Origin: Deltaproteobacteria bacterium
GTDB lineage: Bacteria; Myxococcota_A; Polyangia; Fen-1088
Reading direction: 5' to 3'
Assembly (NCBI GenBank): GCA_033763315.1
Contig: JANRKS010000005.1
Coordinates: forward strand, 288,001-352,000
DNA length: 64,000 nucleotides
A program made the translations under genes and the position numbers. Positions 4,877 to 54,870 of the stretch are shown piece by piece; positions within the stretch are counted from its first letter, which is position 1; every line of letters starts with the position of its first letter. The notes under the pieces were generated by a model. It was given only the letters and a program-made list of their open reading frames with translations. It was not told the DNA's origin and did no database searches.

Positions 4877-4887
4877 GCTTGGCGTCC

Positions 4888-6237
4888 ATGAGATGGGCGC
4901 TCGTTGTGACGATGCTGGTGTGCGCAGCTTGCGATGCACGTCACGTGCTTGGACGCGCCACCCGCGAAGCCCCGTGTGGCAGCTTCGTGGCGGGCCCCGA
5001 TTTGGCCGTATGCTCCGCTGGATTCGTTGGCGCTGAGGCACCCGCTGTGGCCGTGGGCGCCGATGGTGCCCTGGTGCTGGCCATGCAAGATCTCGCCGGC
5101 GTGAGCGGCGGCACCTCCCACTTGATCGCCGTTGGCAAGGCTGGCTTTGTCCGTGTTTTGCCGCGCACGCGGCAAGTGTTGTCGCGCACGATCTTGGGCG
5201 ATGTGGTGTTCGATTTAGAAGTCTCAACGCAACAAGGGTTTATCGCTGTCTTGGGCGCGCCCTGGGGCGTGGCGCTGTTTGAGGCCGATGGTGCCAAGCC
5301 ACTATTCACAGCGCCGATTCAAGCTTCACGCATAAGCGTGGGTGATGACGGTACCGTGGCTGTATGGGACAACGCTTCGGCCGCGATCACGGTTTTTGAT
5401 CGCACCGGCAAAAGGCTTGGCAGCTTCAGCTCGCGCGCCGTGGCAGGTGAGGGCGACGTTGCGGTGGACAGCGCAAACCGCCTGGTGGTGGTGGCAGGCC
5501 AAAGCGACGGCCGTCCGGTGTGTGATGCAATTGATTATCAAGGCAACCCGCGATGGAAGAACTATGATTGGCCCGCGGGTCTCGCCGAAAGCGAGGAACT
5601 AAGGGCTGTTTCAAAAGGGGTCCGTATTCACGTCGGCCGCGACGGAGCGCTCTATTTGTTGGGTGAGAGCAACGGCGGCAACACCGTGTTTAGCCGCGAC
5701 CCACGCGTGTTCGCAGAGCCAGCCCCATCCGTGAGTTACGACGAGTTCAACACCCCCTACAACACCAGCAAAGCGATCACCTTCGTCGGGCGCTTCGCGC
5801 CTCGCACGGGTGAGCTCATGCTTGGCCAATTGTTGCTTGCACGCGCCGAAGGCCCAGCGCCACGCAAGGGCGTGGCCACTATGGCCAGTGATATCGCGGC
5901 AGATGAACAGGGCCAGGTTATGGTGGCCGTGGCGCACCCTTGTTGCGGGCCTGCTTTCAAAGAGCGCAAAGTGGCGGGACGCACGTTGATCGCGTCGTCG
6001 TCAGATTTCGCGGTCGTGATCTTGGGTCAAGACTTTCGCATCCGTGCCTTGTGGACGACCTTCGGCACGGGCGGCGCCTCCGTGGCTGCGGGCGTGGCCT
6101 TCGGCGCCGGCGTGGCTGCAGTGACAGGTCTGCAAGGCGCGGTCGAAAGCGGGATGGGGCCTTTGGTGACCCAGCAACCGCTGTTTCCGTCAATCGCAGC
6201 CAACGGCGGTTATGTCGCGTTTTGGCCGGCGCCTTAA
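4888..6237 (+). CDS. Lipoprotein, probable beta-propeller
   Basis: Start refined to MRWALVVTMLVCAAC (lipobox); repeated VAVxxDG-like blade motifs. Confidence 0.65.
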   Translation: MRWALVVTMLVCAACDARHVLGRATREAPCGSFVAGPDLAVCSAGFVGAEAPAVAVGADGALVLAMQDLAGVSGGTSHLIAVGKAGFVRVLPRTRQVLSRTILGDVVFDLEVSTQQGFIAVLGAPWGVALFEADGAKPLFTAPIQASRISVGDDGTVAVWDNASAAITVFDRTGKRLGSFSSRAVAGEGDVAVDSANRLVVVAGQSDGRPVCDAIDYQGNPRWKNYDWPAGLAESEELRAVSKGVRIHVGRDGALYLLGESNGGNTVFSRDPRVFAEPAPSVSYDEFNTPYNTSKAITFVGRFAPRTGELMLGQLLLARAEGPAPRKGVATMASDIAADEQGQVMVAVAHPCCGPAFKERKVAGRTLIASSSDFAVVILGQDFRIRALWTTFGTGGASVAAGVAFGAGVAAVTGLQGAVESGMGPLVTQQPLFPSIAANGGYVAFWPAP

Positions 6238-6238
6238 G

Positions 6239-6586
6239 CTAAGAGTCGCTTTTCTTCTCGCCGTAAGGGCCGGTATCCACGCGGATGAGGCGGCCATTCT
6301 CGAAGACCACATATCTGATCAATCGGTTGGTGCCAAAGTCATACGTCCACCGTTCGTACTTGACCTCAACGGTGCGTTCGACCCAGAGGTTCCCCTCCTT
6401 CACCCTGACGGAGCTGTATTCCACCCAGGTGGTCGCGTCGTCGGGTTGACCGCAACGCGCTTGAACGAGATACGTCGAATCGCCAGTAGACACCAAGCGC
6501 GTTCCGCAGCGCAGGCCGTCCGCGCGAGCCGCACTCAATCCGCTCAGCATCACACATAGGGCGCCTACGCAAACCAATGTCTTCAT
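6239..6586 (-). CDS. DUF2845 family protein
   Basis: Signal peptide, then LRCGTRLVSTGD...ARCGQP...ERWTYDFG...FENGRL. Confidence 0.85.
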   Translation of the reverse strand: MKTLVCVGALCVMLSGLSAARADGLRCGTRLVSTGDSTYLVQARCGQPDDATTWVEYSSVRVKEGNLWVERTVEVKYERWTYDFGTNRLIRYVVFENGRLIRVDTGPYGEKKSDS

Positions 6587-6613
6587 GGCGTTTGGTTCCT
6601 TGATGTGATGTTA

Positions 6614-34584: not shown

Positions 34585-36939
34585 TTAAACCAAGGCCCAC
34601 GAACCTTGATTGTAGCGAAGCGCTTGTGCGCCCTCGAGTGCGATCAAGTGGATCCAGCCGTTGTGGAACAACTCGCGCACCTGAGGTTGGGCGGCGAGCA
34701 CATCGTCGATGCGTTGGTGGTCCACATCGATGACCACCGTTAACCGCCGCGGCTCATGCACGAAGCGTTGGCCGTCGTGAATGGATTGCAGCGGCAGCCC
34801 CACCCGCAAGTCGCCGCCGTTGCCTTCCCATACGCCCACGCCACCCACGACGTTGTGCAACACCTTGTTGCCGCTGCCGTAGAGCTCCGGATCCACCCGC
34901 GATGCGTAGTATTGCAGGTTGATCCAGCTGGCCACCACGACCGGTGCGCACAAAATCAGCGTCAGCACGCTGTTGTCTGTGTCGGCGCTTGCGTTGTAGT
35001 CGTGCAAGAACACGCGGCCTTGCAGGTTCAACGCTGACGTTCGGCTGCGCGGGGCTGCAATTAGGGCTGCGTTGTTTGCCAACGCCCATTCGGGCCGCAC
35101 TTGCGAGGTGTCGGTCGCTTGCTTCTGCACCGCTTGTTCCAAATCTGCCGCGTGGCTTAACCCCAGCCGCGGCGCCCGCTCGACCCGGGCGTTCATGCCT
35201 GCCTGTTGCAAGGACGTCTGCAAAGCCAACAGATCCTTGTTGTGCGAAGCCGGCACTTGCTCAAGGTCAAACAAGATGACGTTGTCGGTGGTTGTGTTGT
35301 GCAACCCGGCGATGAACACCGTATCGTCGGGGATGGCGATCCCTGCGCTGGCCAGGCCCGCCCGCACTTGCGCGTTGTTGAGGGTTGATGCTGCCAGCCT
35401 CGCGTTCACGTCGCCGGCGTGACCGCCGCACGCGCCGCAATCCAAAGCCGAGGCATAAGGGTTGTTTGCGCTTTGGCTGCCGTGCCCACACAGCAACACC
35501 AACCGAGCGAAGTTTTGCGTGAGGCCCATGTTGCGCAAGGCTCCTTGTGCCATGCCTATGCGCGTTGTCAGGGGTACGTCCGCAGCAAAGGCCGGGGCGC
35601 CTTGCCGTGCCTTGGCCCCCTTACGTCTTGCGGCTAGCGCCGCAGCAAAGCCTAAGCCTGCTGTTTCAACGAATGAGAAGCATGAAGTGGCAGAGTTGGA
35701 GAACGCTTTCCATGCGCCCGCTTGCAGTTTGTGTTGCGTGTGTCGTTGCGCTTGCTCCGCAGGGAGGGCCTCGTGTGTGGCCACCGGTGGAACTAGCAGC
35801 ACGGGGCAGCGCGCGCCGGCCTCGCTGGCCACGGGGTTGTGATGCACCGGGAAACCAAAGAAGCCTGCGAACCCAATCGTCTGTGACCCCGCGCTGGCCG
35901 CTTCAAGGTGCCGCCGAAACACTTCTGACCTGACGTCGATGCAAAACACCGCCTGCAACGTCGGCCGTTCACTCAGCTGATGCGATGGTTGCGCCGCGAG
36001 CGTGCGTGCGAGGTTGCGCTGGTATCCCGCTTCATAAGCCAGCTGCCACCGGCATAAGGCACCGATTGAGTGGGTGTCCACCACCGGGCCCCTAACGTTG
36101 CGCCAGTCGCTTTCCCGCTCGCTGCCTTGCACAAAGACGGCCCACAACGCTGCATCATAAGCCAAGCGAATGGCCAGCAGCTCATGCAAAGCGGGGTTGC
36201 TCTTTCCCCGCAGTTTGTCCTCGCGCACCAAGTATTGAACGTAGCCCGCCCACCCGGCGATGGAGGCAAGTTGCCGATGCAGGAAATCTTGCGTGCTCAC
36301 CTGCCGCGGTGCCAGCAAAGCTAGGCACGTGGCAATGCATGCGTCTGCGTCTTGAGGCAAGGTCTTGATGAAATCTCGGAAACCCTTAATGCCGAACGCT
36401 TCAGGGTTCCGATCGTGTGGCGCCGCTTGCCGCCACGCTGCGAACGGGCCCAGATGCTTCCAAGGCGAATTCCATGTGGTTTGGTTGTCGTCGTAGGTGA
36501 CCGCGCACCATTTCGAAATTTCTTCCACGATGAAGTTTTTCAGACGCGCGCGCGGATGAAATTCGTCGACAAAATCAGCCACCGTCAGTATTGGTTGGCC
36601 TTTCGCCGCGGCGGGCGTGGATGTGATCCACTGCAGCAGTCGTTCACTATTCCAGGTGGCGTCGGCTGCCGTAGCCACATCCTCCAAAGTTATTTGGCCA
36701 GCGTCGAAAGCTGCGAGGTATTCATGTGGCTGCAACAGCGGCGCTGCGCCCGTGGCCTTCTGCAACAGGGTGCAGGCTTGTGAAAAGGGCAGGTGAAGCA
36801 AGCCTGCGAAGGGGTTCACGGCCACAAAGTGTTTCAGTGGCCACAGTGGCGGTATGCGGGAAAGCGCATCGTCAAGGGCCTCTGGGCTAATGGTTGGAAC
36901 CGCTTTAAGAGCGACGTCTTGTTTTGATGCAGAAAGCAT
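34585..36939 (-). CDS. dabA: DabA (DUF2309) inorganic carbon pump catalytic subunit
   Basis: IPPLWPL..FVAVNPF, FCIDVRSE, CGHGS, CGACGG, RPEW, SWINLQYY, HEPRRL. Confidence 0.93.
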   Translation of the reverse strand: MLSASKQDVALKAVPTISPEALDDALSRIPPLWPLKHFVAVNPFAGLLHLPFSQACTLLQKATGAAPLLQPHEYLAAFDAGQITLEDVATAADATWNSERLLQWITSTPAAAKGQPILTVADFVDEFHPRARLKNFIVEEISKWCAVTYDDNQTTWNSPWKHLGPFAAWRQAAPHDRNPEAFGIKGFRDFIKTLPQDADACIATCLALLAPRQVSTQDFLHRQLASIAGWAGYVQYLVREDKLRGKSNPALHELLAIRLAYDAALWAVFVQGSERESDWRNVRGPVVDTHSIGALCRWQLAYEAGYQRNLARTLAAQPSHQLSERPTLQAVFCIDVRSEVFRRHLEAASAGSQTIGFAGFFGFPVHHNPVASEAGARCPVLLVPPVATHEALPAEQAQRHTQHKLQAGAWKAFSNSATSCFSFVETAGLGFAAALAARRKGAKARQGAPAFAADVPLTTRIGMAQGALRNMGLTQNFARLVLLCGHGSQSANNPYASALDCGACGGHAGDVNARLAASTLNNAQVRAGLASAGIAIPDDTVFIAGLHNTTTDNVILFDLEQVPASHNKDLLALQTSLQQAGMNARVERAPRLGLSHAADLEQAVQKQATDTSQVRPEWALANNAALIAAPRSRTSALNLQGRVFLHDYNASADTDNSVLTLILCAPVVVASWINLQYYASRVDPELYGSGNKVLHNVVGGVGVWEGNGGDLRVGLPLQSIHDGQRFVHEPRRLTVVIDVDHQRIDDVLAAQPQVRELFHNGWIHLIALEGAQALRYNQGSWALV

Positions 36940-36956
36940 TGAAGTGTCTCCAGGAG

Positions 36957-38516
36957 TTAGGCTACAGCCACAGGCAAAGGGGGTTGCGCGTTCGAGTGCT
37001 GCGGTGGCCACAAGCGGCCAAGCAACCGGTTACCCAACGTGCCGACGTAAAAGCCATTCAAGGCGTGCACATAGAGGCGCTGCCCTAGCTTTCGGTGGCC
37101 CATGCGCCACAACAACGTTTGAAAGAGGAACAAGCCCGCGAAGAGCGCGCCCACAACCGTGATGACCGTTGTCGAAGGTGTTAGGTGCGGTGTGTGCACG
37201 AAGAACCGCTGGGCTCCGGCGTGAAGGCCGAGGCCCAGCAAACAAAACACTTGCGTTGTTGCAAGTCCGAGCAACACAGCCTTGGGTTGCACGGACCATA
37301 ACCTCGCCAGGCCGTATCCCATCGCCAACACAAACACCAATCCCAATACGCCCAGCTCCAAGTGGGCTCCAAGCGTGTTGAGTGCCGTTGTATGCGCGAC
37401 GAAGGTGGCGGCGGCCGTGGCCAATCCCAACACAAGCGCGCCTGTGCGCAGCGGCGCCGCCTTGCGGGGCACAGCGCCGATGGTGGAGCCCGCCGTTAAA
37501 AACGCGTGTGCCTTGTAGAGCGAATGCGCCACGATATGCACGGTGGCCAAAGCAAAGGCGCCGAGGCCGCACTGCAAAAGCATGAAGCCCATCTGCGCGA
37601 TGGTGGAGTAAGCAAGCGCGCGCTTGACGCTTGGTTGCGCCAGCATCACCACGGCCCCAAATCCCGCCGTGACGGCACCCACCAGCGCCAATACGGAGAG
37701 CACGTGCGGTGCGTGCACGAACAGTGGCGACAACCGAATCACCAAAAAACCACCGGCGTTGATGATGCCCGCGTGCATAAAGGCGGACACCGGCGTGGGC
37801 GTCTCCATTGTATCGGGCAACCATCCATGAAATGGGAACTGCGCTGATTTTAAGGCGGCGCAGGCCGCGATGAGCGCGCATGGCAGGCTGAGGCCTTGCG
37901 TTTGGCCCGCGTCGACGGCGGCAAACATCTGTGTGACGTCGAAGGTGTTGTATTGCTCCTGCAGCAAGACGATGGCTGCCAGCAAACACAGGTCGCCCAT
38001 ACGGCTGATGACGAACTTCTTGCGCGCTGAAAACACGGCGCCTGCGCGGGTGGGGTAAAAAAGAAGCAACTGGTGCAGGCACAAGCTGGTGGCCACCCAA
38101 GCCACCCACAACAAGAGCAAGTGGCCCGCGCTCACCAACAGCAAGACCGCGGCCAGGGTGTTGCTCAACCAAGAGAAGAACCGTGGCGCCTCTGCATCGT
38201 TGCCTAAGTGGTTGCGGGAGAAACTCATCACTGACGCGCCGACGAAGGAAACCAGCACCAGCATGACGGCTGACACTTCGTCAAGCCGCAGGCTCACCGC
38301 CCAGGCGCCATGCAGGTTCGGACCCGCACCCAGCGTGGTGATGTGTCCGTGAGTTGTCAGAAGCACCGCCGAAACAATCGCCGCCACGCACGCGCTCAAG
38401 GCCGCCGCGATGGTGAGCGAAACCGCGCTCTTGGCGCGCAGCAAGCGCGGCAGGCACCCCGCGACGAAGGGAAGAAGCGGCACGGCAAATAGTGTGAAAG
38501 CTGCCAAGGAAGTCAT
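36957..38516 (-). CDS. dabB: DabB, NuoL/ND5-like proton-translocating subunit
   Basis: KSAQFPFHGWLPDTMETPTPVSAFMHAG, AYSTIAQMGFM, AHSLYKAHAFL; directly upstream of dabA. Confidence 0.92.
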   Translation of the reverse strand: MTSLAAFTLFAVPLLPFVAGCLPRLLRAKSAVSLTIAAALSACVAAIVSAVLLTTHGHITTLGAGPNLHGAWAVSLRLDEVSAVMLVLVSFVGASVMSFSRNHLGNDAEAPRFFSWLSNTLAAVLLLVSAGHLLLLWVAWVATSLCLHQLLLFYPTRAGAVFSARKKFVISRMGDLCLLAAIVLLQEQYNTFDVTQMFAAVDAGQTQGLSLPCALIAACAALKSAQFPFHGWLPDTMETPTPVSAFMHAGIINAGGFLVIRLSPLFVHAPHVLSVLALVGAVTAGFGAVVMLAQPSVKRALAYSTIAQMGFMLLQCGLGAFALATVHIVAHSLYKAHAFLTAGSTIGAVPRKAAPLRTGALVLGLATAAATFVAHTTALNTLGAHLELGVLGLVFVLAMGYGLARLWSVQPKAVLLGLATTQVFCLLGLGLHAGAQRFFVHTPHLTPSTTVITVVGALFAGLFLFQTLLWRMGHRKLGQRLYVHALNGFYVGTLGNRLLGRLWPPQHSNAQPPLPVAVA

Positions 38517-39573: not shown

Positions 39574-41304
39574 GTGGCTGGTCAACAAGAAGAGGAGCTC
39601 TTCTTGCGCGCACAGCTGTTCACTGCGTTAATCGTCACAACCTTGGTCTCAGGGTGCTCCGGCGCGGCGGGGTCCCCATCTGAGGGCGACGAGGCCGACG
39701 GCGGATCCGGTGGCGGCGCTTCCGGCGGCACCACAGCGCCGCCGCCCGAGGTGGTGCCAAAGCCGCGTGATTCTGCGTGTGCCGGCGCCGCGCCCAAGCC
39801 CGGCATCGCGGGCTTGCGCAAACTAACGCCATTTGAATACGACAACACTGTGGAAGAGTTGCTGCGCGCCACCACAAAACCTGGCGCCTCGTTCCCCGCA
39901 TCGCAACTTGTGCTTGGTTTCGACAACAACGCCGACGCTGTGAACGCCTCCACCTTGGCCGTTGAGCAGTATCAATCGGCCGCCGAAACGCTGGCACTGG
40001 CCGCCGTCAAAGATCTGCCGAAGTTGATGGGGTGCAACGGTGGTTCCGCGGCCGCCGAAGACACGTGCGCCAAAAGTTTTATCAAGTCGTTCGGCCTGCA
40101 CGCGTTTCGCCGCCCGCTGACCACGGCAGAGCTCGATCGCTTCACGCGCTTCTATATGGACAGCAAAGCGCCGAACGGATTCACAGACTCGGTGCGCATG
40201 CTCGTCGAAGCGTTCTTGCAGTCTCCGCATTTTCTTTACCGCGTTGAAGGTGCAGCGAAAACGGGCTCTGTGGCCGCGCCTTATGCATTGGCTTCGCGGC
40301 TTTCGTATCTCATTTGGAGCAGCATGCCTGATGAAACGTTGTTTGCTGCGGCAGCCTCTGGCCGCTTGAAGGGCGCCGGCGACGTGGCGTTGCAAGCGCA
40401 GCGAATGTTGGCCGACGATCGCGCCAAGCGCGGGGTGAATAACTTCTTTGGCCAGTGGCTTGAGTTGTCGCGCGTGCAGCGTCTTGAAAAGGATGCGGAA
40501 GCCAACCCCACGTGGACGCCGGCTATCGCCGGATTGTTGCGCCAAGAGACAGAAGCGTATGTGCAGGATCAGGTGTTGGGCGGCAAAGGCAACTTGAAAT
40601 CGCTACTCACCGACCCCCATAGTTTCATCAACGCAGATCTGGCGAAATTCTATGGCCTCCAGGCGCCTGCAGGGAGCGGCTTCGGGCGTGTAAATTTGAA
40701 CCCCAAGCAGCGTGCCGGATTGCTCACGCAAGGCGCCTTGTTGGCAGCGGCAGCCAAGCCTCGGCAAAGCTCGCCCGTGGCTCGGGGCTACTTCGTGCGC
40801 GACCGGTTGTTGTGTTCGCCGCCACCGCCTCCACCAGCCAACGTGAATGCCAAATTGCCCGAGCCCGACGGAACGGCCACCACGCGGCAACGCCTTGAAA
40901 GCCACCGCACGGATCCAAGCTGCAGAGGGTGCCACGAGCTTCTTGATCCCGTGGGTCTTGGTTTTGAACACTACGACGCCGTGGGCCTATGGCGCGATCA
41001 GGACGAAGGCAAGCCGGTGGATGCGACGGGCAAGATCAGCAGCGCCGGTGACGCCGACGGCGCGTTCGATGGCGCCATCGAACTTGCAACGAAACTGGCA
41101 GGCAGCCAAACGGTGCAGGCCTGCTTTGCCAAACAATTCTTTCGCTTCGCTTTCGCACGCGGCGAAACCGACGACGACGCATGCACGTTGGATGCCCTGA
41201 GTGTGGCCCTCGGTGGCAATGACGCCACATTCGCGCGCTTCATCGCTACGCTGACACAAACAGATCCATTCATGTACGAAACACAGGCAGGAGTTGGCCA
41301 ATGA
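39574..41304 (+). CDS. DUF1592/DUF1588/DUF1595-type lipoprotein with one c-type heme motif
   Basis: LVSGC lipobox, KLTPFEYDNTV, LQSPHFLYR, LASRLSY, SPVARG, PPPPP, CRGCH, GLGFEHYD. Confidence 0.92.
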   Translation: MAGQQEEELFLRAQLFTALIVTTLVSGCSGAAGSPSEGDEADGGSGGGASGGTTAPPPEVVPKPRDSACAGAAPKPGIAGLRKLTPFEYDNTVEELLRATTKPGASFPASQLVLGFDNNADAVNASTLAVEQYQSAAETLALAAVKDLPKLMGCNGGSAAAEDTCAKSFIKSFGLHAFRRPLTTAELDRFTRFYMDSKAPNGFTDSVRMLVEAFLQSPHFLYRVEGAAKTGSVAAPYALASRLSYLIWSSMPDETLFAAAASGRLKGAGDVALQAQRMLADDRAKRGVNNFFGQWLELSRVQRLEKDAEANPTWTPAIAGLLRQETEAYVQDQVLGGKGNLKSLLTDPHSFINADLAKFYGLQAPAGSGFGRVNLNPKQRAGLLTQGALLAAAAKPRQSSPVARGYFVRDRLLCSPPPPPPANVNAKLPEPDGTATTRQRLESHRTDPSCRGCHELLDPVGLGFEHYDAVGLWRDQDEGKPVDATGKISSAGDADGAFDGAIELATKLAGSQTVQACFAKQFFRFAFARGETDDDACTLDALSVALGGNDATFARFIATLTQTDPFMYETQAGVGQ

Positions 41305-42665
41305 AGTTCCGGCAGCTGTCACGACGTGCGTTGCTTCGCGGTGCAGGCGGCATCAGCATCGCGCTGCCATGGCTTGACATCATGGCGCCGCGCCGAGCTT
41401 ACGCCGCGGACCCGAAGCGCTTCATTGTGGTGTTTACTCCGAATGGCACGAACAACTACGAGCAGTTCACTCCGAAGGGAACTGGCGCGAACTTTACGCT
41501 TGGCACCGAAACGGCGCCATTGTTGCCTTGGAAGAACAAGATGCTCGCGCTCTCGAACGTCAACGCCGTGAGCGCTTTGAACTCCGAAGGCGATCAGCAT
41601 GGCGTGGGCATGGCCGAAGTGCTTACAGCCACGCGTTGGGCAAAGGGGCCCGCGGTGGATGACGTTCCGATCTGGGGCGGCGGTATTTCCATCGATCAGC
41701 GGATCGCCCAAGACGTGGGCAAATCCACCATGTTTCCTTCGCTGGAGCTTGGCGTGCAAACCACCTTGGGTACAGAGGGGTCGGGCGTGCACCCATTTAG
41801 CCGCATGGTCTATAAGAGCGCCGCCACACCCGTGCCGGCGATCGAAGATCCGCGCGAGACTTTCAAGCGTTTGTTCAGCAACCTGGCACCAAGTGGCGCC
41901 GGTGCAGACACCTCGGGCCTGGACAAAGCCCGGCTGCAACGCAAAAGCGTGCTTGATTTTGTGAAGGAAGACTATCAACAGCTGGCGCCTCGTCTCAGCA
42001 CGAAGGACAAGCAAAAGATTGATCAACACTTTACGGCCATTTCAGAAATCGAGAAGCGTTTGGGTGGCGCAACCACTGTAACGCCGGCTATGGGGTGCAA
42101 CAAACCGGCTGAGCCATCACCCACTTTGGATGTGAAAAATCCCGCGAACTTTCCGCAAATTGGGAAATTGCAAACCGACCTGTTGGCTGTAGCGCTGGCG
42201 TGTGACTTAACCCGTGTGGCCACGTTGCAGTGGTCTTGGGCACGCTCAGATGTGGCCCTGCAGTGGATTGGCGTTAAAGATTCGCATCACGATCTGAGCC
42301 ATGGTGCCGCGTCCGCCACGCTTTCGTCGATCAATAAGTGGTACGCGGAACAAGTGGCATACTTGTGCAAGACGCTGGATGGCTTTGACGAAGGCGGAAA
42401 AACCTTGCTCGACAACTCAGTGTTGTGGTGGACAAGCGATGTTTCGTTCGGCCCCACCCATTCTTTCACAAACATACGCGCCCTGTTGTTTGGCTCATGC
42501 GGCGGCTACTTTAAAACCGGGCAGCACATTGATTACGGCAACGCCAGCAAGGTCACCAACAATCAGCTGATGGTGACGTTCATGCGGGCGATGGGCATAC
42601 AGGCCGCTCAATTTGGTGAGGCATCCGCGGCACAGGGCCCCCTGCCTGGGCCGATCACGGCTTGA
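41301..42665 (+). CDS. DUF1552 family protein, Tat substrate
   Basis: SRRALLRG, FTPNG, SIDQRIA, ALACDLTRVATLQ, HHDLSH, TLLDNS; ATGA-coupled to the DUF1592 gene. Confidence 0.92.
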   Translation: MKFRQLSRRALLRGAGGISIALPWLDIMAPRRAYAADPKRFIVVFTPNGTNNYEQFTPKGTGANFTLGTETAPLLPWKNKMLALSNVNAVSALNSEGDQHGVGMAEVLTATRWAKGPAVDDVPIWGGGISIDQRIAQDVGKSTMFPSLELGVQTTLGTEGSGVHPFSRMVYKSAATPVPAIEDPRETFKRLFSNLAPSGAGADTSGLDKARLQRKSVLDFVKEDYQQLAPRLSTKDKQKIDQHFTAISEIEKRLGGATTVTPAMGCNKPAEPSPTLDVKNPANFPQIGKLQTDLLAVALACDLTRVATLQWSWARSDVALQWIGVKDSHHDLSHGAASATLSSINKWYAEQVAYLCKTLDGFDEGGKTLLDNSVLWWTSDVSFGPTHSFTNIRALLFGSCGGYFKTGQHIDYGNASKVTNNQLMVTFMRAMGIQAAQFGEASAAQGPLPGPITA

Positions 42666-44230: not shown

Positions 44231-45691
44231 CTAACGCGCATAAGGGTCCTTTATACCGTTAAGCAATGGCCGCGGTGGACTGTGTTCCACAGGTTCGGCT
44301 TTCGGTGTGGCGGATCTTGGTTTCGGCCGCTGTGTCGCACGCTTGGTGCGCCTTGAAACGGGCTTCACAGGCGCGGGCGCTGCAGCGGGAGGCGTCGTTG
44401 CCGAAGGTTGAACGTCCACAGGCGCCGGGGGGATCACCCTTGCCGTCGGCGGAGGCATCGCCACGAGGGGATTCTCCTGCTTTGCCTTGGGCGTGCGTTG
44501 CACAAGCACCGTCGCCACAGTTGCGATCGCCAGCGCCGCCCCCGGCAGCCACAAAAGACGGCTTTGACGCTGCGAGCGCGCTGGTCTTGCCGGCTGCACG
44601 ATGTTTTGCAAGGCCGTCAGCAGTGTGGCCATTGATGCAAATCGATCTTGCGGCTGCAGCGCGAGTCCCTGCGCCAAGATTCGATAAAGGGCGCCTGGTA
44701 CTTTGGTGTCCTTGGGCGCGGGTCTTAGTTGACCTGAGAGCACGGCACGCGCCAGCGCCGAGAGATCGCGCTCGCCATCGGAAGCAAAGGGCCTCTGCTT
44801 GTAAAGCGCGACATAAAGCGAAGCGCAAAAATTAAACTGATCCGTCGACTGATCGGCGCGTGCCCCGCGAAATTGTTCCGGCGCCATATACGCGGGTGTG
44901 CCGGCAAACGCGGCCGCCTCCGTCAGCGTCAATAAAAACGAACGCACACCTGTGATGGAAGTTGTGGTGCCTGCCACGCCATCAGGGTGATCGCTGTCCC
45001 CCGCGTGGGCCGCGCGCGCCAACCCAAAATCAGTGACGCGCGGCCGCCCGTCGGCGCCCACCAGAACGTTCTCGGCCTTGAAATCGCGGTGAACCAGCCC
45101 CGCCGCGTGCGCTGCCACCAACCCCTGGCCCGCGGCAATGAACTGGGCCACCACGTCTTGCCAAGCCGGTTTGTGCCGTGAAAGCCAGCGGGCCAAGGTC
45201 TGGCCTTCAATAAGCTCCATCGCGATGAACACGCCGTCTTTGAACGTGCCGGCATCGTAAACAGCCACGACAGACGGGTGAGACAACTGTGCCATGGCAC
45301 GTGCCTCGCGTAGCAACCGATGCGCGTCTGTCGCCGCCTGCGCGCCCGCACGATCGGGACGCACGATCTTCAATGCGACCCGGCGGCTCAGCTGTGGATC
45401 GAAAGCCTCATAAACCAGGCCTGCCCCTCCTGCGCCCAGCAGGCCACCGATTTCATAACGGCCTACGGTGGCGCCATGCTCAAGCTTGATGGGCTCGCTG
45501 TCGTGGTCGTCGACGGTGGCGCCGATCTCTGGCTCGTCCAAACTGGGGGGCAACGCCTTGCGGGTTTGCGCCACCAACACGCGGCACCGACTGCATGTGC
45601 CCAGGTGATCGATGATGGCCGGTCGATCGGGACCCGCGGTGCCCCCGCCGACAAACAAGAGGATCTCGTCGTCATTGAGGCAGGGGCGCAT
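44231..45691 (-). CDS. Transmembrane Ser/Thr protein kinase with N-terminal zinc-finger (anti-sigma-like) domain
   Basis: CLNDDE...HLGTCSRC; GAGGAG, VALK, HRDFKAEN, DFG, GTPAYMAPEQ; TM; Pro-rich tail ending KDPYAR. Start uncertain (45691-45730). Confidence 0.92.
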   Translation of the reverse strand: MRPCLNDDEILLFVGGGTAGPDRPAIIDHLGTCSRCRVLVAQTRKALPPSLDEPEIGATVDDHDSEPIKLEHGATVGRYEIGGLLGAGGAGLVYEAFDPQLSRRVALKIVRPDRAGAQAATDAHRLLREARAMAQLSHPSVVAVYDAGTFKDGVFIAMELIEGQTLARWLSRHKPAWQDVVAQFIAAGQGLVAAHAAGLVHRDFKAENVLVGADGRPRVTDFGLARAAHAGDSDHPDGVAGTTTSITGVRSFLLTLTEAAAFAGTPAYMAPEQFRGARADQSTDQFNFCASLYVALYKQRPFASDGERDLSALARAVLSGQLRPAPKDTKVPGALYRILAQGLALQPQDRFASMATLLTALQNIVQPARPARSQRQSRLLWLPGAALAIATVATVLVQRTPKAKQENPLVAMPPPTARVIPPAPVDVQPSATTPPAAAPAPVKPVSRRTKRATQRPKPRSATPKAEPVEHSPPRPLLNGIKDPYAR

Positions 45692-45763
45692 GCCGTTCTC
45701 GTTCACACGTGAATTTTCCCAGTGTATCATGAGGTGTGAACGATTCCCAACGCCGGCCTTAGC

Positions 45764-46696
45764 ATGTCCGGAGCGTCGCATTTACCCGTTTTACCGCAAG
45801 GTTTCCTGCCGCAGGATGTTCTGGCGGCCTACCTGCAGGCGGGCGGCGCCGCGGGCTTGGACGCCACGCGGTTGAGCGAGCTTTTGGTTCAGCTGTTTGC
45901 CAAAGCAAGCCTGCGGCATTCCACCTTCGTGGTGACGCCAGTGACGTTCGCAGCCGCTTTGGCGGAACGCACCGCCGGCGAACCCGATCCGTTGGTCACC
46001 CTGGCTTCTTTGCATGTGGAGGATCTGTATTTGGCGCAGGCCTGCGTCTTGGGTGACGCCGTGGCGTTGCGCTGCCTCAATGAAGAATTCCTTCTGCCTT
46101 TAGGCCAGCAGGTGCGCCGCGGACCGTTTGCGAACCATGCCGATGAAGCGCAACAGATGCTGCGCGTGCGCCTGCTGGTGGGGCATGACGGTGAGCCGGC
46201 GCGCTTGTTCGGTTATCGTGGCACGGGACCCCTGGCAGCGTGGCTGCGCCTCACTCTAACGCGACTGGTGCTGAACCTTCACAACGCAGCCGCGCGCGAA
46301 ACAAGCTTGGATGATCACCTCATCTCCGTCAGTGCGGGGCAAGGCGATCCAGAACTTTCATACCTTCGGGATCACTACCGCGATGTGGTGTTGCAAGCTA
46401 TGCGTGAATCGATTGAGGTGCTATCCAGTGAAGAGCGCGCAATTTTGCGCATGCATTTCATCGATGACTTGTCAGCGGCCGACATCGGCTCATTGTTTCA
46501 AGTTTCGGGCCGCACGATCCAGCGGCGCATTGCGGACACGCGCCGCCAGATTGTCGAGCGCGTCAAGGAAATCATCGGCCGCCACGTGGGGTTGAATGGG
46601 AGCCAGCTGGAAACCATCATGCGCCTGGTGCAAAGCGATTGGAACCTTTCGCTGCACCGTCTGCTCGCTGCGCCCACGGAGCCGTCTGGAAAATAG
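45764..46696 (+). CDS. Myxococcales-type sigma-70/ECF-like factor
   Basis: EDLYLAQAC, YRGTGPLAAWLR, DPELSYL, LRMHFIDDLS..DIG; this type is commonly next to zinc-finger kinases in myxobacteria. Confidence 0.85.
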   Translation: MSGASHLPVLPQGFLPQDVLAAYLQAGGAAGLDATRLSELLVQLFAKASLRHSTFVVTPVTFAAALAERTAGEPDPLVTLASLHVEDLYLAQACVLGDAVALRCLNEEFLLPLGQQVRRGPFANHADEAQQMLRVRLLVGHDGEPARLFGYRGTGPLAAWLRLTLTRLVLNLHNAAARETSLDDHLISVSAGQGDPELSYLRDHYRDVVLQAMRESIEVLSSEERAILRMHFIDDLSAADIGSLFQVSGRTIQRRIADTRRQIVERVKEIIGRHVGLNGSQLETIMRLVQSDWNLSLHRLLAAPTEPSGK

Positions 46697-46701
46697 AAAG
46701 C

Positions 46702-46730
46702 TTTGTCCGCTTTCGGCGCCTGCGGCATAG
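46702..46730 (+). promoter_or_regulatory. ECF promoter motif copy 1 (TTTGTCCG-N16-CATAG)
   Basis: Upstream of the ECF sigma gene at 46764; two more copies at 49862 and 50458. Confidence 0.75.
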
Positions 46731-47351: not shown

Positions 47352-48118
47352 GCTTATGGCGGTACCGCCACAGAATCGCGCGCGCGGTGGCCGGCGATCT
47401 GCCGGCGAAGGCGGAGCTGAAGCTGCGCGCACACTTGCGATCTTGCGAGGCCTGCCGGGCGCACTACAACGTGCTTTCGCAAATGGCGAGCGTCAGCGAT
47501 CCCGCCACAGCGAAGCAACGCCAACGCGCTCGGCTTGAAGCTTTGTTGCCTGCGCCGGTGGCAACGCCCGTGCGAGCCACGCGCCGGTGGGTTTGGGCGC
47601 TGCCCGTGCTAGTGCCTGCGATGGTGGCACTTGTGTGGATGCGATCGCACCCGCCCACTCTTGAAGAAGTGCAATGGCGTGGTGGTGCGGAGCCCGCGGC
47701 GTGGCCGCTGTCGCTTGTGATGTACGAGTTTGCGCATGGCCCGCAGGGGCCCGCGGTTGTTTTGGGCGAGCTGCCATTTTCGCGCGGCGTACGTGTGGCG
47801 CGTGAGGCTTTGGTGCAATTCGCTTACGCCAAGCTGCAAAAGCCCACGTTCTTGTTCTTGGTGGGGCAACAAGAAGGCAAAGCGGTGGTGCTTTTCCCGC
47901 GGCGTCCACAAGACGAGGGGCAGCTTGTGCCAGAGCCACGCGCGAAAGCTTTGGGCACGTCGTTGAACCTGCATGCCGCCTTCAACCCAGGCTTGCTGCG
48001 GCTAAGCGTGGTGCTTTCCGCACAGCGGCTCACGGCGGACCAAGCCACGGCAGCCGTCACTTCGGGCAAGCTCACTGGCTTACAAGTCTTTGGCGAAACG
48101 GTTAGGCTGCTCCCCTAA
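47348..48118 (+). CDS. zf-HC2 transmembrane anti-sigma factor with periplasmic (DUF4384-like) domain
   Basis: Start refined to ATG 47348 (ATGA overlap); HLRSCEAC, TM, then QWRGG and a beta-rich domain with VVLFP. Confidence 0.82.
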   Translation: MSLWRYRHRIARAVAGDLPAKAELKLRAHLRSCEACRAHYNVLSQMASVSDPATAKQRQRARLEALLPAPVATPVRATRRWVWALPVLVPAMVALVWMRSHPPTLEEVQWRGGAEPAAWPLSLVMYEFAHGPQGPAVVLGELPFSRGVRVAREALVQFAYAKLQKPTFLFLVGQQEGKAVVLFPRRPQDEGQLVPEPRAKALGTSLNLHAAFNPGLLRLSVVLSAQRLTADQATAAVTSGKLTGLQVFGETVRLLP

Positions 48119-48123
48119 GCGAC

Positions 48124-49851
48124 ATGTTCAAGTTGGTGCGGCTCGCTCTGCTTCTCACCCTGGTGATTCCACCACTGCAGGCGCACGCCCAGGGGGGGCG
48201 GGAGCGTGAGTTCGGGCAAACGCTCGTTTTAATCGTGGGCTGGAACGGCGGCGGCTTTGGGCTTCCGCCGCTGCGCTATGCCGACGACGACGCACTTCGC
48301 TTTGCTGCCACTTTGGGGGCCGATTCTTCAGGCCTCTTACGACCCAAGATGGTGGTGCTCACGCAGCTTGACGCGGAGACAGCTGCGCATGCGCCGAATG
48401 CGAATGTTGTTTCGGGGCCGCCGACGCGCGTGCGGTTGCGCGCCGCGATCGATGATTTCGTGCGTGACTTGGCCGCATCGAAGAAGCGGCACCGCGTGTT
48501 TGTGATCTACGCCGGCCACGGCCTCACCAATCGGCTGTTGCTTGCCCCTTCGGATGGCCAAGACGAAACTTTCTCTGGATACGAATTGCGTTCAGCGGTG
48601 ACCCAGCTTGCACAGGCCAACGCGCACGCTGAGATCTTCGTGTTCATCGACGCTTGCCGCTCGCAGAGCCTGTTTACAACACGCGGCGGATTGGACGGGC
48701 CCGATTTGAGCGCCGTCATAGACAACCTTGAACAACAACCGTTGGGCACGCAGGTGGGTGTGTTGACGGCGGCCACCAGCGCCAAGCCCGCAGGTGAACT
48801 GCACAGACTTGAATCAGGTTACTTCAGCCACGTCTTGCTCTCGGGCATTGTAGGCGCGGCGGATGCCGATGAGGACGAGCACGTCTCATTCGGGGAATTG
48901 GCAGCGTTTGTGAGCTTTCACACGCAGGCGATGATGGGGCAACGACCCTGGTTTAGCCCGCCGCATGGCGATCTAGGCAGCGTTCTGTTTGATCACAGCC
49001 GCGACAATCATCGCCTGGTGTTCCCGCGCGGCATGGATGGACACTTCGAGGTGCGGGCCGCGCAAGGTCGACCGCTGTTTGCTGAGCTGTTCAAAGACAA
49101 GAACCAGCGCATAACGCTGTCGTTGCCGCAAGGCCAGTATCAAGTGCTGCAGACTTCACCAGCGCAAGGCACACGGCAGGCGGCTGTGGAATTGGCCGCG
49201 CGGGGCAGCGTGGATGTGCAAACATCGGCTTGGCAAGTGGCAGGCGAAGCTTCGCGTGGTGAACAGGATGGCGTTGACGCGGACACTTTGGGCTTTCGCG
49301 CGCCATTTTCCAGCGACGTGGTCGCCACGCTCAGAAGCGGTTACGACAGTGGCCGCATGTCGGCGGTGAGCCCATCGGTCGAAGCGCGGGATGCGTTTGC
49401 CCTCGGCGCGGCCGCTGGCAGCATGCCCTTGTCCCTGGGCGGCGTAAGCTATGGCGTTGCTCTTGCGTATAGGCACTTGTTTTCGCATTGGTTCGTGGGT
49501 GTTGGTGGTTCGTTTCTGCGCGCATCACACGACTTGCCAGATGAGTCTTACACGCTGGTACAGCTCCCAGTGCAAGCGCAACTCGGTGCTTGGCATGCCT
49601 TTACGCCGGCATGGTGGGCGTCCACGTGGTTAAGTGGGGGCTCAAACAGCTTGTGGCGCATAGGATCAGAAACGACAGGCGATCGCTTGTTGCCACGCGT
49701 TGGCGCTGGTGTGTCAGTTTATCGACGGCTACAAGGGGCGTGGTTCTTGGGCGTGTCGCCGGCGCTGCACAGTCAATGGATTGCCGTTGATGGACGAGCG
49801 CAGGCAGATAAGGGAATGACGATCAATTTTGAGGTGAGCTATGTGCGTTGA
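48124..49851 (+). CDS. Exported caspase-family (peptidase C14) protein with probable C-terminal beta-barrel
   Basis: Signal peptide (AHA); LRYADDDA, YAGHG, FIDACRS dyad, ADADEDEHVSFGEL; amphipathic strands ending INFEVSYVR. Confidence 0.88.
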   Translation: MFKLVRLALLLTLVIPPLQAHAQGGREREFGQTLVLIVGWNGGGFGLPPLRYADDDALRFAATLGADSSGLLRPKMVVLTQLDAETAAHAPNANVVSGPPTRVRLRAAIDDFVRDLAASKKRHRVFVIYAGHGLTNRLLLAPSDGQDETFSGYELRSAVTQLAQANAHAEIFVFIDACRSQSLFTTRGGLDGPDLSAVIDNLEQQPLGTQVGVLTAATSAKPAGELHRLESGYFSHVLLSGIVGAADADEDEHVSFGELAAFVSFHTQAMMGQRPWFSPPHGDLGSVLFDHSRDNHRLVFPRGMDGHFEVRAAQGRPLFAELFKDKNQRITLSLPQGQYQVLQTSPAQGTRQAAVELAARGSVDVQTSAWQVAGEASRGEQDGVDADTLGFRAPFSSDVVATLRSGYDSGRMSAVSPSVEARDAFALGAAAGSMPLSLGGVSYGVALAYRHLFSHWFVGVGGSFLRASHDLPDESYTLVQLPVQAQLGAWHAFTPAWWASTWLSGGSNSLWRIGSETTGDRLLPRVGAGVSVYRRLQGAWFLGVSPALHSQWIAVDGRAQADKGMTINFEVSYVR

Positions 49852-49861
49852 GCGCAACCGG

Positions 49862-49890
49862 TTTGTCTGGTGCCAATGGATCTCGCATAG
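49862..49890 (+). promoter_or_regulatory. ECF promoter motif copy 2 (TTTGTCTG-N16-CATAG)
   Basis: 7 nt before ATG 49898. Confidence 0.75.
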
Positions 49891-49897
49891 AGGATGC

Positions 49898-50419
49898 ATG
49901 CGCCGTTTTTTTACGTTGGCTTTGACGCTTATCAGCGCGTGCAGCGTGCCGCCCCTGACCACTGAAGATCTCACAGGTGGCAAACGTGACGCTTCGAGCG
50001 TCGTGGCTGATGCGGCGCCTGCGAAGGTTGATGGCCCGTCTGACGCTGGCGTGGCGCCTGACGCATCCGAGCCGCGGCTGGATACCGCCCCTATGCTTGA
50101 TGGCGTTCTCAGCGGCATTGTGGTGGATGCCTGCACCGGCAAGGCGATCAATGCTTTGGTAGGCATCGCCGGTAAGCACTTATGTTCCTTTGCCGGCAAG
50201 GGAGGCTTCTATTTCACAGGCTTGCCCACGGGCATTGAACTCGAGTTGGCCAGCGCCGCTCCTGGTTACCAGGCATTTGGAAAAGCTGTGGTTATTTCGG
50301 CCGCCGGCACCACCGTTAAGATCGTTTTGGATCGTGTCGACGCGAGCTCGGAGGCGCCGTGCGGTGTGCCCGAACCACCGGAGCCGATGTGTTCGTGTCT
50401 GCAGCCGGGCTGCATCTGA
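49898..50419 (+). CDS. Lipoprotein with carboxypeptidase-regulatory-like (Ig/transthyretin-like) domain
   Basis: MRRFFTLALTLISAC; LSGIVVDACTG..I.ALV...GGFYFTGLP...APGY. Confidence 0.78.
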   Translation: MRRFFTLALTLISACSVPPLTTEDLTGGKRDASSVVADAAPAKVDGPSDAGVAPDASEPRLDTAPMLDGVLSGIVVDACTGKAINALVGIAGKHLCSFAGKGGFYFTGLPTGIELELASAAPGYQAFGKAVVISAAGTTVKIVLDRVDASSEAPCGVPEPPEPMCSCLQPGCI

Positions 50420-54156: not shown

Positions 54157-54212
54157 AAGAGAACCTGCCCTTGCGATTCGCTGTGAGCAATACAACGGGC
54201 ATAGGTTCTCTT
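54157..54212. other. Long hairpin directly downstream of the toxin gene
   Basis: AAGAGAACCT-GCCC ... GGGC-AT-AGGTTCTCTT inverted repeat overlapping the stop codon. Confidence 0.55.
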
Positions 54213-54870
54213 AACGACCCATGGACTGATCTCGTCGCCAAAGCGAGACACCCTTTTCGAGTTCTTTCTTCACGATTGACCATGATCGCTCATACCCCTC
54301 GGGAGACGGATCGCGTTCTGCATCCATGAAATATGTAAGCGCCAAGGCGACCTGGCTCGGCGCTAGAGGCAAGTTCTTTGCGGCGTGGTCAATGAATCGG
54401 CCAAGTGACCACCCCGGTGACTTGGATATCTCAAGGACATCTATCAGGTCTCGCTTCGTTCCTCTGTCATGAACGGCAGCAGCCTTCATCACAGCGAGCA
54501 TTTCAAGCTTTGCAACCGGAATCGCAACGGCCCCTATCTTGATCGGCGCCACCTTCGGGGGCACCTGCCGATAGGCGATGAAGCTGGTTTCGAAATTGCC
54601 GTAGTAGGCCCGCACCGTATGGGCGCTGTTTTGGGCAATACTTGTTGGCTTCTCACCCAGGGCACTTAGCTCCTTCTTCAACGCTTCTGCGTCAAATGCC
54701 TGCGCGGTGAACCAATCCAAATCGCGGGAAATGCGGTGCTTGAGCAGCAGCCCCATGGCCGTGCCGCCCGCAAGAAAGAAACCCTTCTTCTTCACAAGGT
54801 CCGCTTGCAAGCCAATGATGCGGATCTTCTCCGCATCGAGGATCTTCTTCTTCGTCGTCAACCCGCCCAC
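54211..54870 (-). CDS. AbiEii/AbiGii-family nucleotidyltransferase (type IV TA toxin)
   Basis: FFLAGGTA...HRISRDLDWF, MKAAAVHDRG.KRDLID. Confidence 0.9.
   Translation of the reverse strand: MGGLTTKKKILDAEKIRIIGLQADLVKKKGFFLAGGTAMGLLLKHRISRDLDWFTAQAFDAEALKKELSALGEKPTSIAQNSAHTVRAYYGNFETSFIAYRQVPPKVAPIKIGAVAIPVAKLEMLAVMKAAAVHDRGTKRDLIDVLEISKSPGWSLGRFIDHAAKNLPLAPSQVALALTYFMDAERDPSPEGYERSWSIVKKELEKGVSLWRRDQSMGR

Follow-up and report, generated by a model that had tools for sequence, protein, structure and literature searches.

A caspase-fold protease encoded beside an ECF sigma factor and its anti-sigma factor in Myxococcota, and a shared Arg-Gly motif that predicts cleavage of both protease and anti-sigma factor

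Site-1 proteases carry out the signal-sensing step of many extracytoplasmic function (ECF) sigma factor pathways, and for most ECF groups this protease has not been identified. Regulated intramembrane proteolysis of single-pass anti-sigma factors is exemplified by the DegS-RseA-RseP and PrsW-RsiW systems. Type III-E craspases, consisting of Cas7-11 and the TPR-CHAT protease Csx29, cut Csx30, which is putatively the anti-sigma partner of an ECF sigma factor. Papers are cited here by accession. The general scheme of site-1 and site-2 proteolysis of anti-sigma factors is stated in PMC11506125, which also mentions that craspases target putative anti-sigma factors in the cytoplasm. In the same paper, RseP of Myxococcus xanthus is described to degrade the anti-sigma factor DdvA after loss of the periplasmic caspase-fold domain of DdvA. 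The authors regard such a mechanism as unprecedented and DdvA as the only characterised anti-sigma factor of that kind (PMC11506125). So far, site-1 cleavage by a caspase fold exists only as a proposal, made for this fused protein (PMC11506125). Here we analysed a stretch of 64,000 nucleotides from a deltaproteobacterium of the class Polyangia (GCA_033763315.1, contig JANRKS010000005.1, positions 288,001 to 352,000; hereafter the window), in which an ECF sigma factor and a zinc-binding anti-sigma factor (ZAS) are encoded together with a separate caspase-fold protease.

The module consists of four tightly packed genes on the plus strand, encoding the ECF sigma factor, the ZAS anti-sigma factor, a Peptidase_C14-type caspase and a lipoprotein (Table 1). 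The ATG of the anti-sigma gene at 47348 overlaps the sigma stop codon as ATGA. An initial annotation of the window had pointed to an R-G motif shared by the anti-sigma factor and the caspase, and the three occurrences were found as described. W-R-G-G (W110-R111-G112-G113, 47675-47686) follows the anti-sigma transmembrane (TM) segment, with R111 located 13 residues beyond TM segment 81-98 (9-24 residues, median 13, across 39 sequences). T-R-G-G (48679-48690) places R187 nine residues after the caspase C178, and S-R-G-E (R378-G379, 49252-49263) lies in linker 366-396 before the C-terminal domain of the caspase. We refer to these as site C, site A and site B, respectively. Our central proposal, for which we consider the chances to be about even, is that the caspase is an Arg-specific periplasmic protease tethered to the outer membrane, which would process itself at site A, release itself at site B and make the site-1 cut in the anti-sigma factor at site C.

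With the caspase as query, 8000 candidates were scored and 113 of them were full-length relatives at E <= 0.001; a representative library gave 3461 matches at E <= 0.001 (947 at E <= 1e-10). The source-given names of the caspase relatives all indicate Myxococcota. The caspase alignment contains 42 rows; the anti-sigma alignment contains 39 sequences with a mean column identity of 31%. When species genomes were scanned with the caspase alignment, 251 stretches matched, and a relative is encoded in 175 of them. We numbered the best 80 as L001-L080, with L001-L044 being orthologue-like and L045-L080 paralogue-like. From the anti-sigma alignment L009 was omitted on account of an internal stop, and L037, L069 and L072 were too distant and were read outside the anti-sigma alignments. 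The L009 anti-sigma gene (1938-2843) may be a decayed copy or an assembly error. A quick tree was made from 72 of the 80 loci (caspase open reading frame (ORF) >= 480 aa), the window protein not being in the tree. Using tblastn with the window proteins on the 80 loci, we found an anti-sigma factor just upstream of the caspase in 43, a sigma factor upstream in 53 (at E <= 1e-3; 41 of these at E <= 1e-18) and the lipoprotein downstream in 28.

The initial annotation had named co-conservation of the motifs across homologous operons as the test of its idea, and this co-conservation turned out to be strong. R111-G112 is kept in 39/39 related loci, and in further anti-sigma homologues from the protein collection the motif after the TM segment was present in 24/24. 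Site A (187-188) reads [RK]G in 42/44 orthologue-like and 33/36 paralogue-like loci, and site B (378-379) in 39/40 and 31/36, respectively. The RG dipeptide itself is not enriched in either protein: compared to an expectation calculated from amino-acid composition, the caspase contains 4 (4.1 expected) and the anti-sigma factor 2 (1.4 expected). The remaining, unflagged RG dipeptides are not kept in the orthologue-like loci (caspase 302, 0/42; caspase 360, 0/40; anti-sigma 146, 0/39), and in the paralogue-like loci those of the caspase are kept in 0/34 (position 302) and 4/33 (position 360). These counts exclude chance, and the conservation of the flagged motifs is far above it.

The anti-sigma factor has the features of a ZAS protein, namely an N-terminal zf-HC2 domain with H-x3-C-x2-C, one TM segment and a gene directly after that of the ECF sigma factor. 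Its AlphaFold2 (AF2) model has a mean predicted local distance difference test score (pLDDT) of 85.1 and contains cytoplasmic helices (1-66), a TM helix and strands at 122-254. Residues 101-103 and 105-111 have a pLDDT below 50, the disordered stretch ending at R111. In the anti-sigma alignment only 10 columns are invariant (M1, L3, G16, H29, C33, C36, Y40, R111, G112 and P143), and the columns around R111-G112 are poorly conserved, gapped and variable in length. We also collected 53 proteins that are encoded next to a caspase and have both H-x3-C-x2-C and a TM segment. Within 30 residues after the TM segment, the strict motif hydrophobic-x-x-[RK]-G was found in 49 of them and any [RK]G in 52. 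In the later 30-residue windows of the same proteins, used as control (n=191), the strict motif occurred in 22/191 and any [RK]G in 45/191, which corresponds to an approximately eightfold enrichment of the strict motif in the first 30 residues. Distant and paralogous caspases likewise have a zinc-finger/TM protein directly upstream, with juxtamembrane motifs such as F-T-A-R-G, F-V-A-R-G, L-V-A-R-G and F-T-P-R-G. An invariant R-G after the TM segment in a disordered linker predicts a site-1 cut, after which a site-2 protease would act on the anti-sigma factor.

A DdvA-type fusion with TPR-CHAT within the anti-sigma factor was not found in this protein: the periplasmic part is a beta-sandwich of ~135 residues, and the protease is a separate gene. 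No Pfam family was found for the periplasmic part, even at E <= 10. In Foldseek searches the sandwich resembled the lipid-binding sandwiches of RhoGDI, UNC119 and PDE6D (best E 8.8e-4, TMt 0.34-0.49). We did not assign a function from this resemblance, the matches being too weak; a lipid or lipoprotein ligand is conceivable, though unsupported.

In the caspase, F184 before site A is invariant in the alignment, and the pLDDT is below 50 at 188-205, right after R187-G188. Caspase-3, with its Cys163, is cut at Asp175 in the intersubunit linker. A conserved [RK]G opens the disordered loop 188-205 and marks a putative self-cleavage site after a basic residue, of the kind that orthocaspases and metacaspases require for activity. 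At site B, R378 is present in 38/42 and G379 in 42/42 rows, while the commonest residue of the surrounding columns reaches 4-21 of 42; here too, the pLDDT is below 50 right after the motif, at 380-383. Sites B and C thus appear, from alignment and model, as invariant islands in disordered and otherwise unconserved linkers. We rejected an RGD-type adhesion motif at site B, since among 37 operons R-G is followed by E in 12, by G in 10 and by D in 9. The motifs could also be structural or unrelated to each other, representing a turn, a membrane-proximal contact or a sorting signal, with coincidental convergence in Arg- and Gly-rich proteins. This would agree with the chance rate of RG in both proteins and with the position of site A beside a structurally conserved segment. 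However, disordered linkers of variable length are where structural constraint is least expected, and it is there that sites B and C are invariant. The enrichment of the strict motif after the TM segment (49/53 vs 22/191), the extended P4-P4' profile common to the sites and the co-variation at P1' described below argue in the same direction, and we regard a structural or coincidental origin as very improbable.

Next we compared the residues flanking the three sites in 40 operons. At site C, P4 is V (23) or I (15), P3 is T (18), P2 is W (15), E (10) or L (9), Arg and Gly are present in all 40, P2' is G (20) and P4' is D (17) or E (10). Site A has F in all 40 at P4, T (24) at P3, E (27) at P2, R (39), G (39), A (17) or G (16) at P2' and D (19) at P4'. 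Site B shows T (10), V (9) or A (6) at P4, A (17) at P3, E (14) or A (11) at P2, R (37), G (36), E (12), G (10) or D (9) at P2' and acidic residues at P3'/P4'. The three sites share a common profile: a hydrophobic or small P4, a small P3, Arg, Gly and then acidic residues. In several operons (e.g. L008 and L014) the likeness is close, with V-T-E-R-G-G in the anti-sigma factor and F-T-E-R-G-G in the caspase. In one clade Lys replaces Arg at the caspase sites, and L037 has K-G at all three sites.

Furthermore, the residue after Arg changes together in the two proteins. Loci L045, L047 and L073 have R-S both in the anti-sigma factor and at site B, and L049 and L064 have R-G in both, a match in 5/5, while site A remains R-G in all five loci. 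In the quick tree L073 falls outside (L049, L064, (L045, L047)) with supports of 97-100, which implies at least two coordinated P1' changes in this small sample. The upstream proteins of these five loci lack H-x3-C-x2-C and carry a TM segment and the juxtamembrane motif. Such co-variation fits two competing ligands as well as two substrates, and a shared recognition motif with an acidic pocket would fit equally if the Arg-Gly motifs bind the caspase active site without being cut. Site B would then be a pseudosubstrate inhibitor and the anti-sigma motif a competing bait, with signalling by binding or conformation. This view resembles the alternative offered in the initial annotation, in which the periplasmic domain serves as inhibitor or bait. 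Against this, the invariant Gly after Arg, the flexible surroundings and the short membrane stub give the sites the look of scissile sites, whereas a stable inhibitor is more likely to have an uncleavable or rigid P1'. In addition, known transmembrane ZAS anti-sigma factors, DdvA of the same phylum among them (PMC11506125), release their sigma factor by proteolysis, and orthocaspases, which cut after basic residues (PMC6426788), include MaOC1, which must be cleaved to become active (PMC5756287). Binding without cleavage therefore seems unlikely to us. A complex prediction for caspase 25-372 and anti-sigma 100-256 (score 0.05, mark 0.32, made without controls) was counted neither way.

The AF2 model of the caspase has a mean pLDDT of 86.7 and a predicted template modelling score (pTM) of 0.74. 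With the N-terminal part, Foldseek found legumain, metacaspase 9, Yca1, MALT1 and caspase-1/-4 (E 2.6e-06 to 2.5e-05, TMt 0.40-0.62). Residues G131, H132, G133, D176, A177 and C178 are invariant in 42/42 rows, giving a conserved His-Cys dyad. The dyad is kept among the listed loci; L035 and L036 read A-G-H-S-A. The paralogue in L052 matches Peptidase_C14 with 29.6 bits, above the cut-off of 21.4. A sequence search against solved structures with the caspase profile gave nothing significant, the best match being legumain (E 0.21), and no similarity between MALT1 and the window caspase was detectable by HMMER. Membership of the EACC1-associated caspase family (NCBIfam NF047832) was rejected, the score being 38.3 bits where the curated cut-off is 140.

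In many MALT1 substrates the Arg is followed by Gly. In the window caspase, helix 53-65 (alpha-1) comes after strand 30-39, and D54, D55 and D56 in this helix, together with D176 and E225, are candidate residues of an acidic S1 pocket (Table 1). All five are invariant in 42/42 rows, and from them we infer Arg specificity at P1. MALT1 requires Arg at P1 and strongly prefers a hydrophobic P4, with Val at P3 and Ser at P2 accepted (PMC3304489). According to a modelling paper, the P1 Arg of MALT1 is held by D365 (helix alpha-1), D462 (end of beta-4) and E500 (following loop), and caspase-3 has Arg at the corresponding positions (PMC4626109).

The presence of such residues also bears on the possibility that another trypsin-like periplasmic protease cuts all three sites, so that the caspase zymogen and the anti-sigma factor are parallel substrates and the caspase has some other target. 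Nothing direct speaks for this, apart from the motif being short and basic-specific proteases being common; the caspase motifs are also present in L054 and L080, where an adjacent anti-sigma factor was not found. Yet acidic residues as expected of an Arg pocket are present in the caspase itself, and no other protease is conserved in the module, in which only sigma factor, anti-sigma factor, caspase and lipoprotein recur. Moreover, the juxtamembrane motif tracks the caspase gene ([RK]G in 52/53 adjacent proteins), and two proteins of one operon change at P1' in a coordinated way. We consider another protease clearly unlikely.

The initial annotation had ascribed a single specificity to all three sites. 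The islands in disordered linkers, the His-Cys dyad, the MALT1-like acidic residues, the shared P4-P4' profile and the P1' co-variation all support one Arg/Lys specificity that would act at each of them. It had also spoken of an anchor from which the caspase is released, and the model indicates that this anchor is real, in the form of an 8-stranded OmpA/OmpX-like barrel. The strands at 423-574, with block pLDDT of 89-98, form a closed 8-stranded barrel, and Foldseek matched the C-terminal part to OmpA, Ail, NspA, OmpX and OmpW (E 6e-07 to 1.9e-05, TMt 0.57-0.73). No Pfam family was found for this half of the protein, even at E <= 10. Type Va autotransporters have a 12-stranded C-terminal barrel with a linker helix passing through. 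This architecture was rejected, as the barrel has 8 strands and its best structural matches are 8-stranded, and the catalytic domain was accordingly taken as periplasmic. In 8-stranded outer-membrane barrels both ends are periplasmic, which should leave the catalytic domain suspended from the outer membrane into the periplasm. A C-terminal aromatic residue is the beta-signal for barrel insertion into the outer membrane; the window caspase ends with V-R, and F or W is terminal in 15 of the 21 alignment rows listed.

Taken together, the module would act as a proteolytic switch spanning the cell envelope. The caspase would be exported by a Sec signal peptide, its barrel residing in the outer membrane and its catalytic domain being held in the periplasm on a flexible tether of ~30 residues. 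It would be a clan-CD protease cutting after Arg (Lys in one clade) in the context hydrophobic/small-small-x-Arg|Gly followed by acidic residues. Upon a trigger, possibly Ca2+ or an envelope perturbation, the zymogen would cut its own loop after R187, a counterpart of the caspase intersubunit linker. The active enzyme would then cut the tether after R378 and leave the outer membrane. By cutting after R111, ~13 residues above the inner membrane, it would remove the anti-sigma beta-sandwich. The short stub would be handed to an RseP-type site-2 protease, leading to degradation of the zinc-finger domain and freeing of the sigma factor. Finally, the sigma factor would transcribe its own operon, resulting in positive feedback.

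The Ca2+ trigger is suggested by an EF-hand-like loop in the caspase domain (D247-x-D249-x-D251...E258), in which D247 and E258 are invariant and D251, V254, F256 and G257 are present in >= 90% of the rows. Support from sequence searches was weak (EF-hand_5, E 0.0015 in the L052 paralogue, under the cut-off; calcium-binding proteins, E 2.3). The loop may be a Ca2+ switch that differs from the metacaspase Ca2+ site. Envelope damage is a second candidate trigger, given how far an enzyme in the outer membrane would be from a site at the inner membrane. As for the feedback, the promoter-like sequence TGTCC-N16-GCATA upstream of the sigma gene is its single match in the window (0.27 expected). A relaxed motif, TGT[CT][CT]-N14-18-GCATA, was found <=130 nt upstream of the sigma gene in 24/39 operons, compared to a background of 0.0058 per 130 nt over the loci. 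The 15 operons without it are mostly from Polyangia and have an upstream coding region abutting the sigma gene. The sigma factor thus probably drives its own operon from TGTCC-N16-GCATA.

Several points weigh against this model. Every cleavage step in it is drawn from sequence and predicted structure. An enzyme held in the outer membrane is far from a site 13 residues off the inner membrane, so the model needs the predicted release step, and a gene for an RseP-like site-2 protease was not found within the 64-kb window. The acidic residues of the caspase would occupy the three topological places of the MALT1 Arg pocket by topology, not by superposition. Site A directly follows S180-Q-S-L-F184, the segment that aligns with legumain (E 0.21, not significant), and its conservation may therefore be partly structural. 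Exceptions to the motif occur: site A reads R-D in L012 and is without the Gly in L051, L057 and L080, site B reads R-D-G in L006, and the L053 anti-sigma factor, with R-D, is the one exception to [RK]G among the 53 adjacent proteins. The Lys change is not strictly coupled, with L030 having K-G at both caspase sites and R-G in the anti-sigma factor, and the Lys clade also changes Arg to Lys at the unrelated conserved position 102. For these two reasons we rejected Lys/Arg co-variation as evidence and read Lys only as tolerance of either basic residue. Among the eight other ZAS anti-sigma factors in the flanks that were taken as unlinked control, six are members of the module itself, as split or shifted genes or one gene more distant, and two are truly unlinked. 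Lastly, the background given in the initial annotation holds in part: orthocaspases do cut after basic residues and MaOC1 does need cleavage, but a cut just downstream of the catalytic Cys is not stated in the parts of PMC6426788 and PMC5756287 used here.

Table 1. Coordinates of the module and its predicted elements in the window (residue numbers refer to the protein named)
Feature	Position	Strand	Basis or remark
ECF-type promoter-like motif TGTCC-N16-GCATA	46704..46729	+	35 nt upstream of sigma start
ECF sigma factor, 195 aa	46764..47351	+	Sigma70_r2 E 3.2e-12; TIGR02937 sigma70-ECF 64.6 bits vs cut-off 42.9
ZAS anti-sigma factor, single-pass, 256 aa	47348..48118	+	zf-HC2 23.7 bits vs cut-off 22.2
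Anti-sigma zinc motif H29-x3-C33-x2-C36, cytoplasmic	47432-47455	+	invariant in anti-sigma alignment
Anti-sigma TM segment, residues 81-98	47588-47641	+	hydropathy
Site C, V108-Q-W-R111-G112-G113, predicted site-1 cleavage site	47669..47686	+	conservation, low pLDDT
Anti-sigma periplasmic beta-sandwich, residues 122-254	47711-48109	+	AF2 model
Secreted caspase-fold protease, 575 aa	48124..49851	+	Peptidase_C14 27.2 bits vs cut-off 21.4, E 3.9e-06, residues 34-245
Caspase signal peptide, residues ~1-22			AF2 model helix
Caspase domain, residues 30-290	48211-48993	+	
D54-D55-D56, start of helix alpha-1, candidate acidic S1 pocket	48283..48291	+	invariant 42/42
Catalytic His H132	48517-48519	+	invariant in caspase alignment
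D176, candidate S1 pocket	48649-48651	+	end of strand 170-176; 2 residues before Cys
Catalytic Cys C178	48655-48657	+	invariant in caspase alignment
Site A, F184-T-T-R187-G188-G189, predicted autoprocessing site	48673..48690	+	start of disordered loop after C178
E225, candidate S1 pocket	48796-48798	+	loop after strand 211-215
EF-hand-like loop D247-x-D249-x-D251...E258 in caspase domain	48862..48897	+	residues 247-258
Caspase beta-sandwich, residues 296-365	49009-49218	+	
Caspase linker (tether), residues 366-396	49219-49311	+	
Site B, A376-S-R378-G379-E380-Q, predicted release site in tether	49246..49263	+	
Caspase helix, residues 397-414	49312-49365	+	
Caspase C-terminal 8-stranded barrel, residues 423-574	49390-49845	+	
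Lipoprotein, lipobox L-I-S-A-C	49898..50419	+	probable start M20 of ORF 49841-50419; CarboxypepD_reg-like

The CarboxypepD_reg match of the lipoprotein (E 0.018) lies under the family cut-off. A similar carboxypeptidase-regulatory-like domain is found in the +1 gene of ECF54 sigma factors (PMC7826278). Some loci deviate in their gene arrangement. An extra ORF of ~770-860 codons lies between a motif-bearing anti-sigma factor (F-Q-A-R-G) and the caspase in L058 (1749-2411), L059 (1950-2588) and L054, and in L078 an anti-sigma-like part and the caspase are apparently one ORF (4221-6605). The L041 caspase has G-G at site A and is divergent after the Cys; it may be a decayed copy or an assembly error.

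Among the neighbours of the module are numerous regulators, a Ser/Thr kinase and a sigma factor of 'Myxococcales family 1', which mark a Myxococcota chromosome. The family 1 sigma-70 factor gene (TIGR03001, 187.9 bits; 45764-46696, plus strand) lies directly upstream of the module. The Ser/Thr kinase gene (44231-45781, minus strand), which encodes an N-terminal zinc-finger-like C-x2-C, is divergent from and overlaps it. Neither of these two genes is conserved beside the module in other genomes, and the flanking genes (gmx1 sigma, TPR protein, ORF413 and hydrolase) were found next to the module in 0 loci. Elsewhere in the window we found a DabA/proton-antiporter-like pair that is a probable inorganic-carbon pump (34585-38516, minus strand), an AbiEii-type toxin gene (54211-54870, minus strand) and two DUF1585-1595 (PSD/PSCyt) proteins (533-2293, minus strand; 39574-42665, plus strand), one of which is followed by a DUF1552 protein.

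Beyond this locus, the module may stand for a widespread and undescribed class of ECF signalling in Myxococcota. In this class an outer-membrane-tethered clan-CD caspase and an inner-membrane anti-sigma 'bait' would share a three-site Arg|Gly code for self-activation, self-release and the site-1 cut, so that a signal from the envelope or from Ca2+ would lead to a transcriptional response that amplifies itself and cannot be reversed. We put this wider claim forward tentatively, as doubtful at present; the module was seen in no fewer than 53 of our 80 loci. If true, the caspase would be the first trans-acting site-1 protease of the caspase family, and the distance between enzyme and site would make the switch a sensor of envelope integrity. 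For bacterial C14 caspases, this would mean a defined substrate in normal physiology and a function in regulation instead of cell death. An outer-membrane-anchored member would be added to the caspase family, and the module would represent a compact orthogonal protease-to-transcription unit. The idea is directly testable, because protease and substrate are separate and the predicted bonds are residue-defined and invariant across dozens of species.

Our full-text literature searches turned up no account of a C14 caspase that acts as a separate protein alongside an ECF sigma factor and an anti-sigma factor, and the terms 'caspase', 'Peptidase_C14' and 'PF00656' do not occur in the part of the ECF-classification supplement examined (PMC7826278). 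The ECF54 group of Actinobacteria resembles the window module in combining an ECF sigma factor with a carboxypeptidase-regulatory-like protein and a CHAT caspase-fold protein, for which proteolytic control was proposed (PMC8999054, PMC7826278). In the parts of these papers used here, however, ECF54 comes without an anti-sigma factor and its set includes a subtilase and a TPR-CHAT protein, whereas the window has a ZAS anti-sigma factor and a barrel-anchored C14 caspase. Another C14 protease from a prokaryote, the Microcystis orthocaspase MaOC1, has a preference for cleavage after basic residues, needs self-cleavage and cleaves a regulator, an antitoxin, encoded adjacent to it (PMC5756287, PMC6426788, PMC7935541); as described there, it differs in being cytoplasmic, without a membrane anchor and without a sigma/anti-sigma partner. 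MALT1 shares the caspase fold, the near-absolute P1 Arg, the hydrophobic P4, small P2/P3 residues and acidic residues that would lie in the same topological places, but it is eukaryotic, cytoplasmic and activated by dimerisation, and loop cleavage is not needed.

Craspases are similar in that a caspase-fold protease frees an ECF sigma factor by cutting an inhibitor encoded beside it. They differ in being cytoplasmic and RNA-activated and in cutting after Met or Leu (PMC11506125), and, as far as the sources cover them, they operate without a membrane, a site-2 step or self-processing motifs. The DegS-RseA-RseP and PrsW-RsiW systems share the periplasmic juxtamembrane site-1 cut, followed by a site-2 protease and release of the sigma factor. 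DegS and PrsW are inner-membrane serine or metalloproteases, whereas the window candidate is a clan-CD cysteine protease, predicted to be tethered to the outer membrane and to carry two matching self-cleavage motifs.

The closest precedent is DdvA. The DdvA-DdvS system of Myxococcus xanthus, from the same phylum, likewise has a transmembrane zinc-finger anti-sigma factor and a periplasmic His-Cys caspase fold, and its flexible juxtamembrane linker was proposed as the place of the site-1 cut, with RseP degrading the truncated anti-sigma factor (PMC11506125). In DdvA, however, a CHAT domain is fused into an anti-sigma factor of ~900 residues, and action in trans within a dimer was proposed; in the part of PMC11506125 drawn on, cleavage is proposed, not observed, and no site motif is defined. 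In the window system, the Peptidase_C14-type protein is separate and anchored, according to the model, in the outer membrane, the anti-sigma sandwich has ~135 residues and an invariant R-G site is predicted. With no published pairing with a separate caspase found and DdvA as the nearest system, we regard signalling by a trans-acting, outer-membrane-anchored caspase with three predicted scissile bonds at residue level as a new form of the already known protease-gated ECF signalling.

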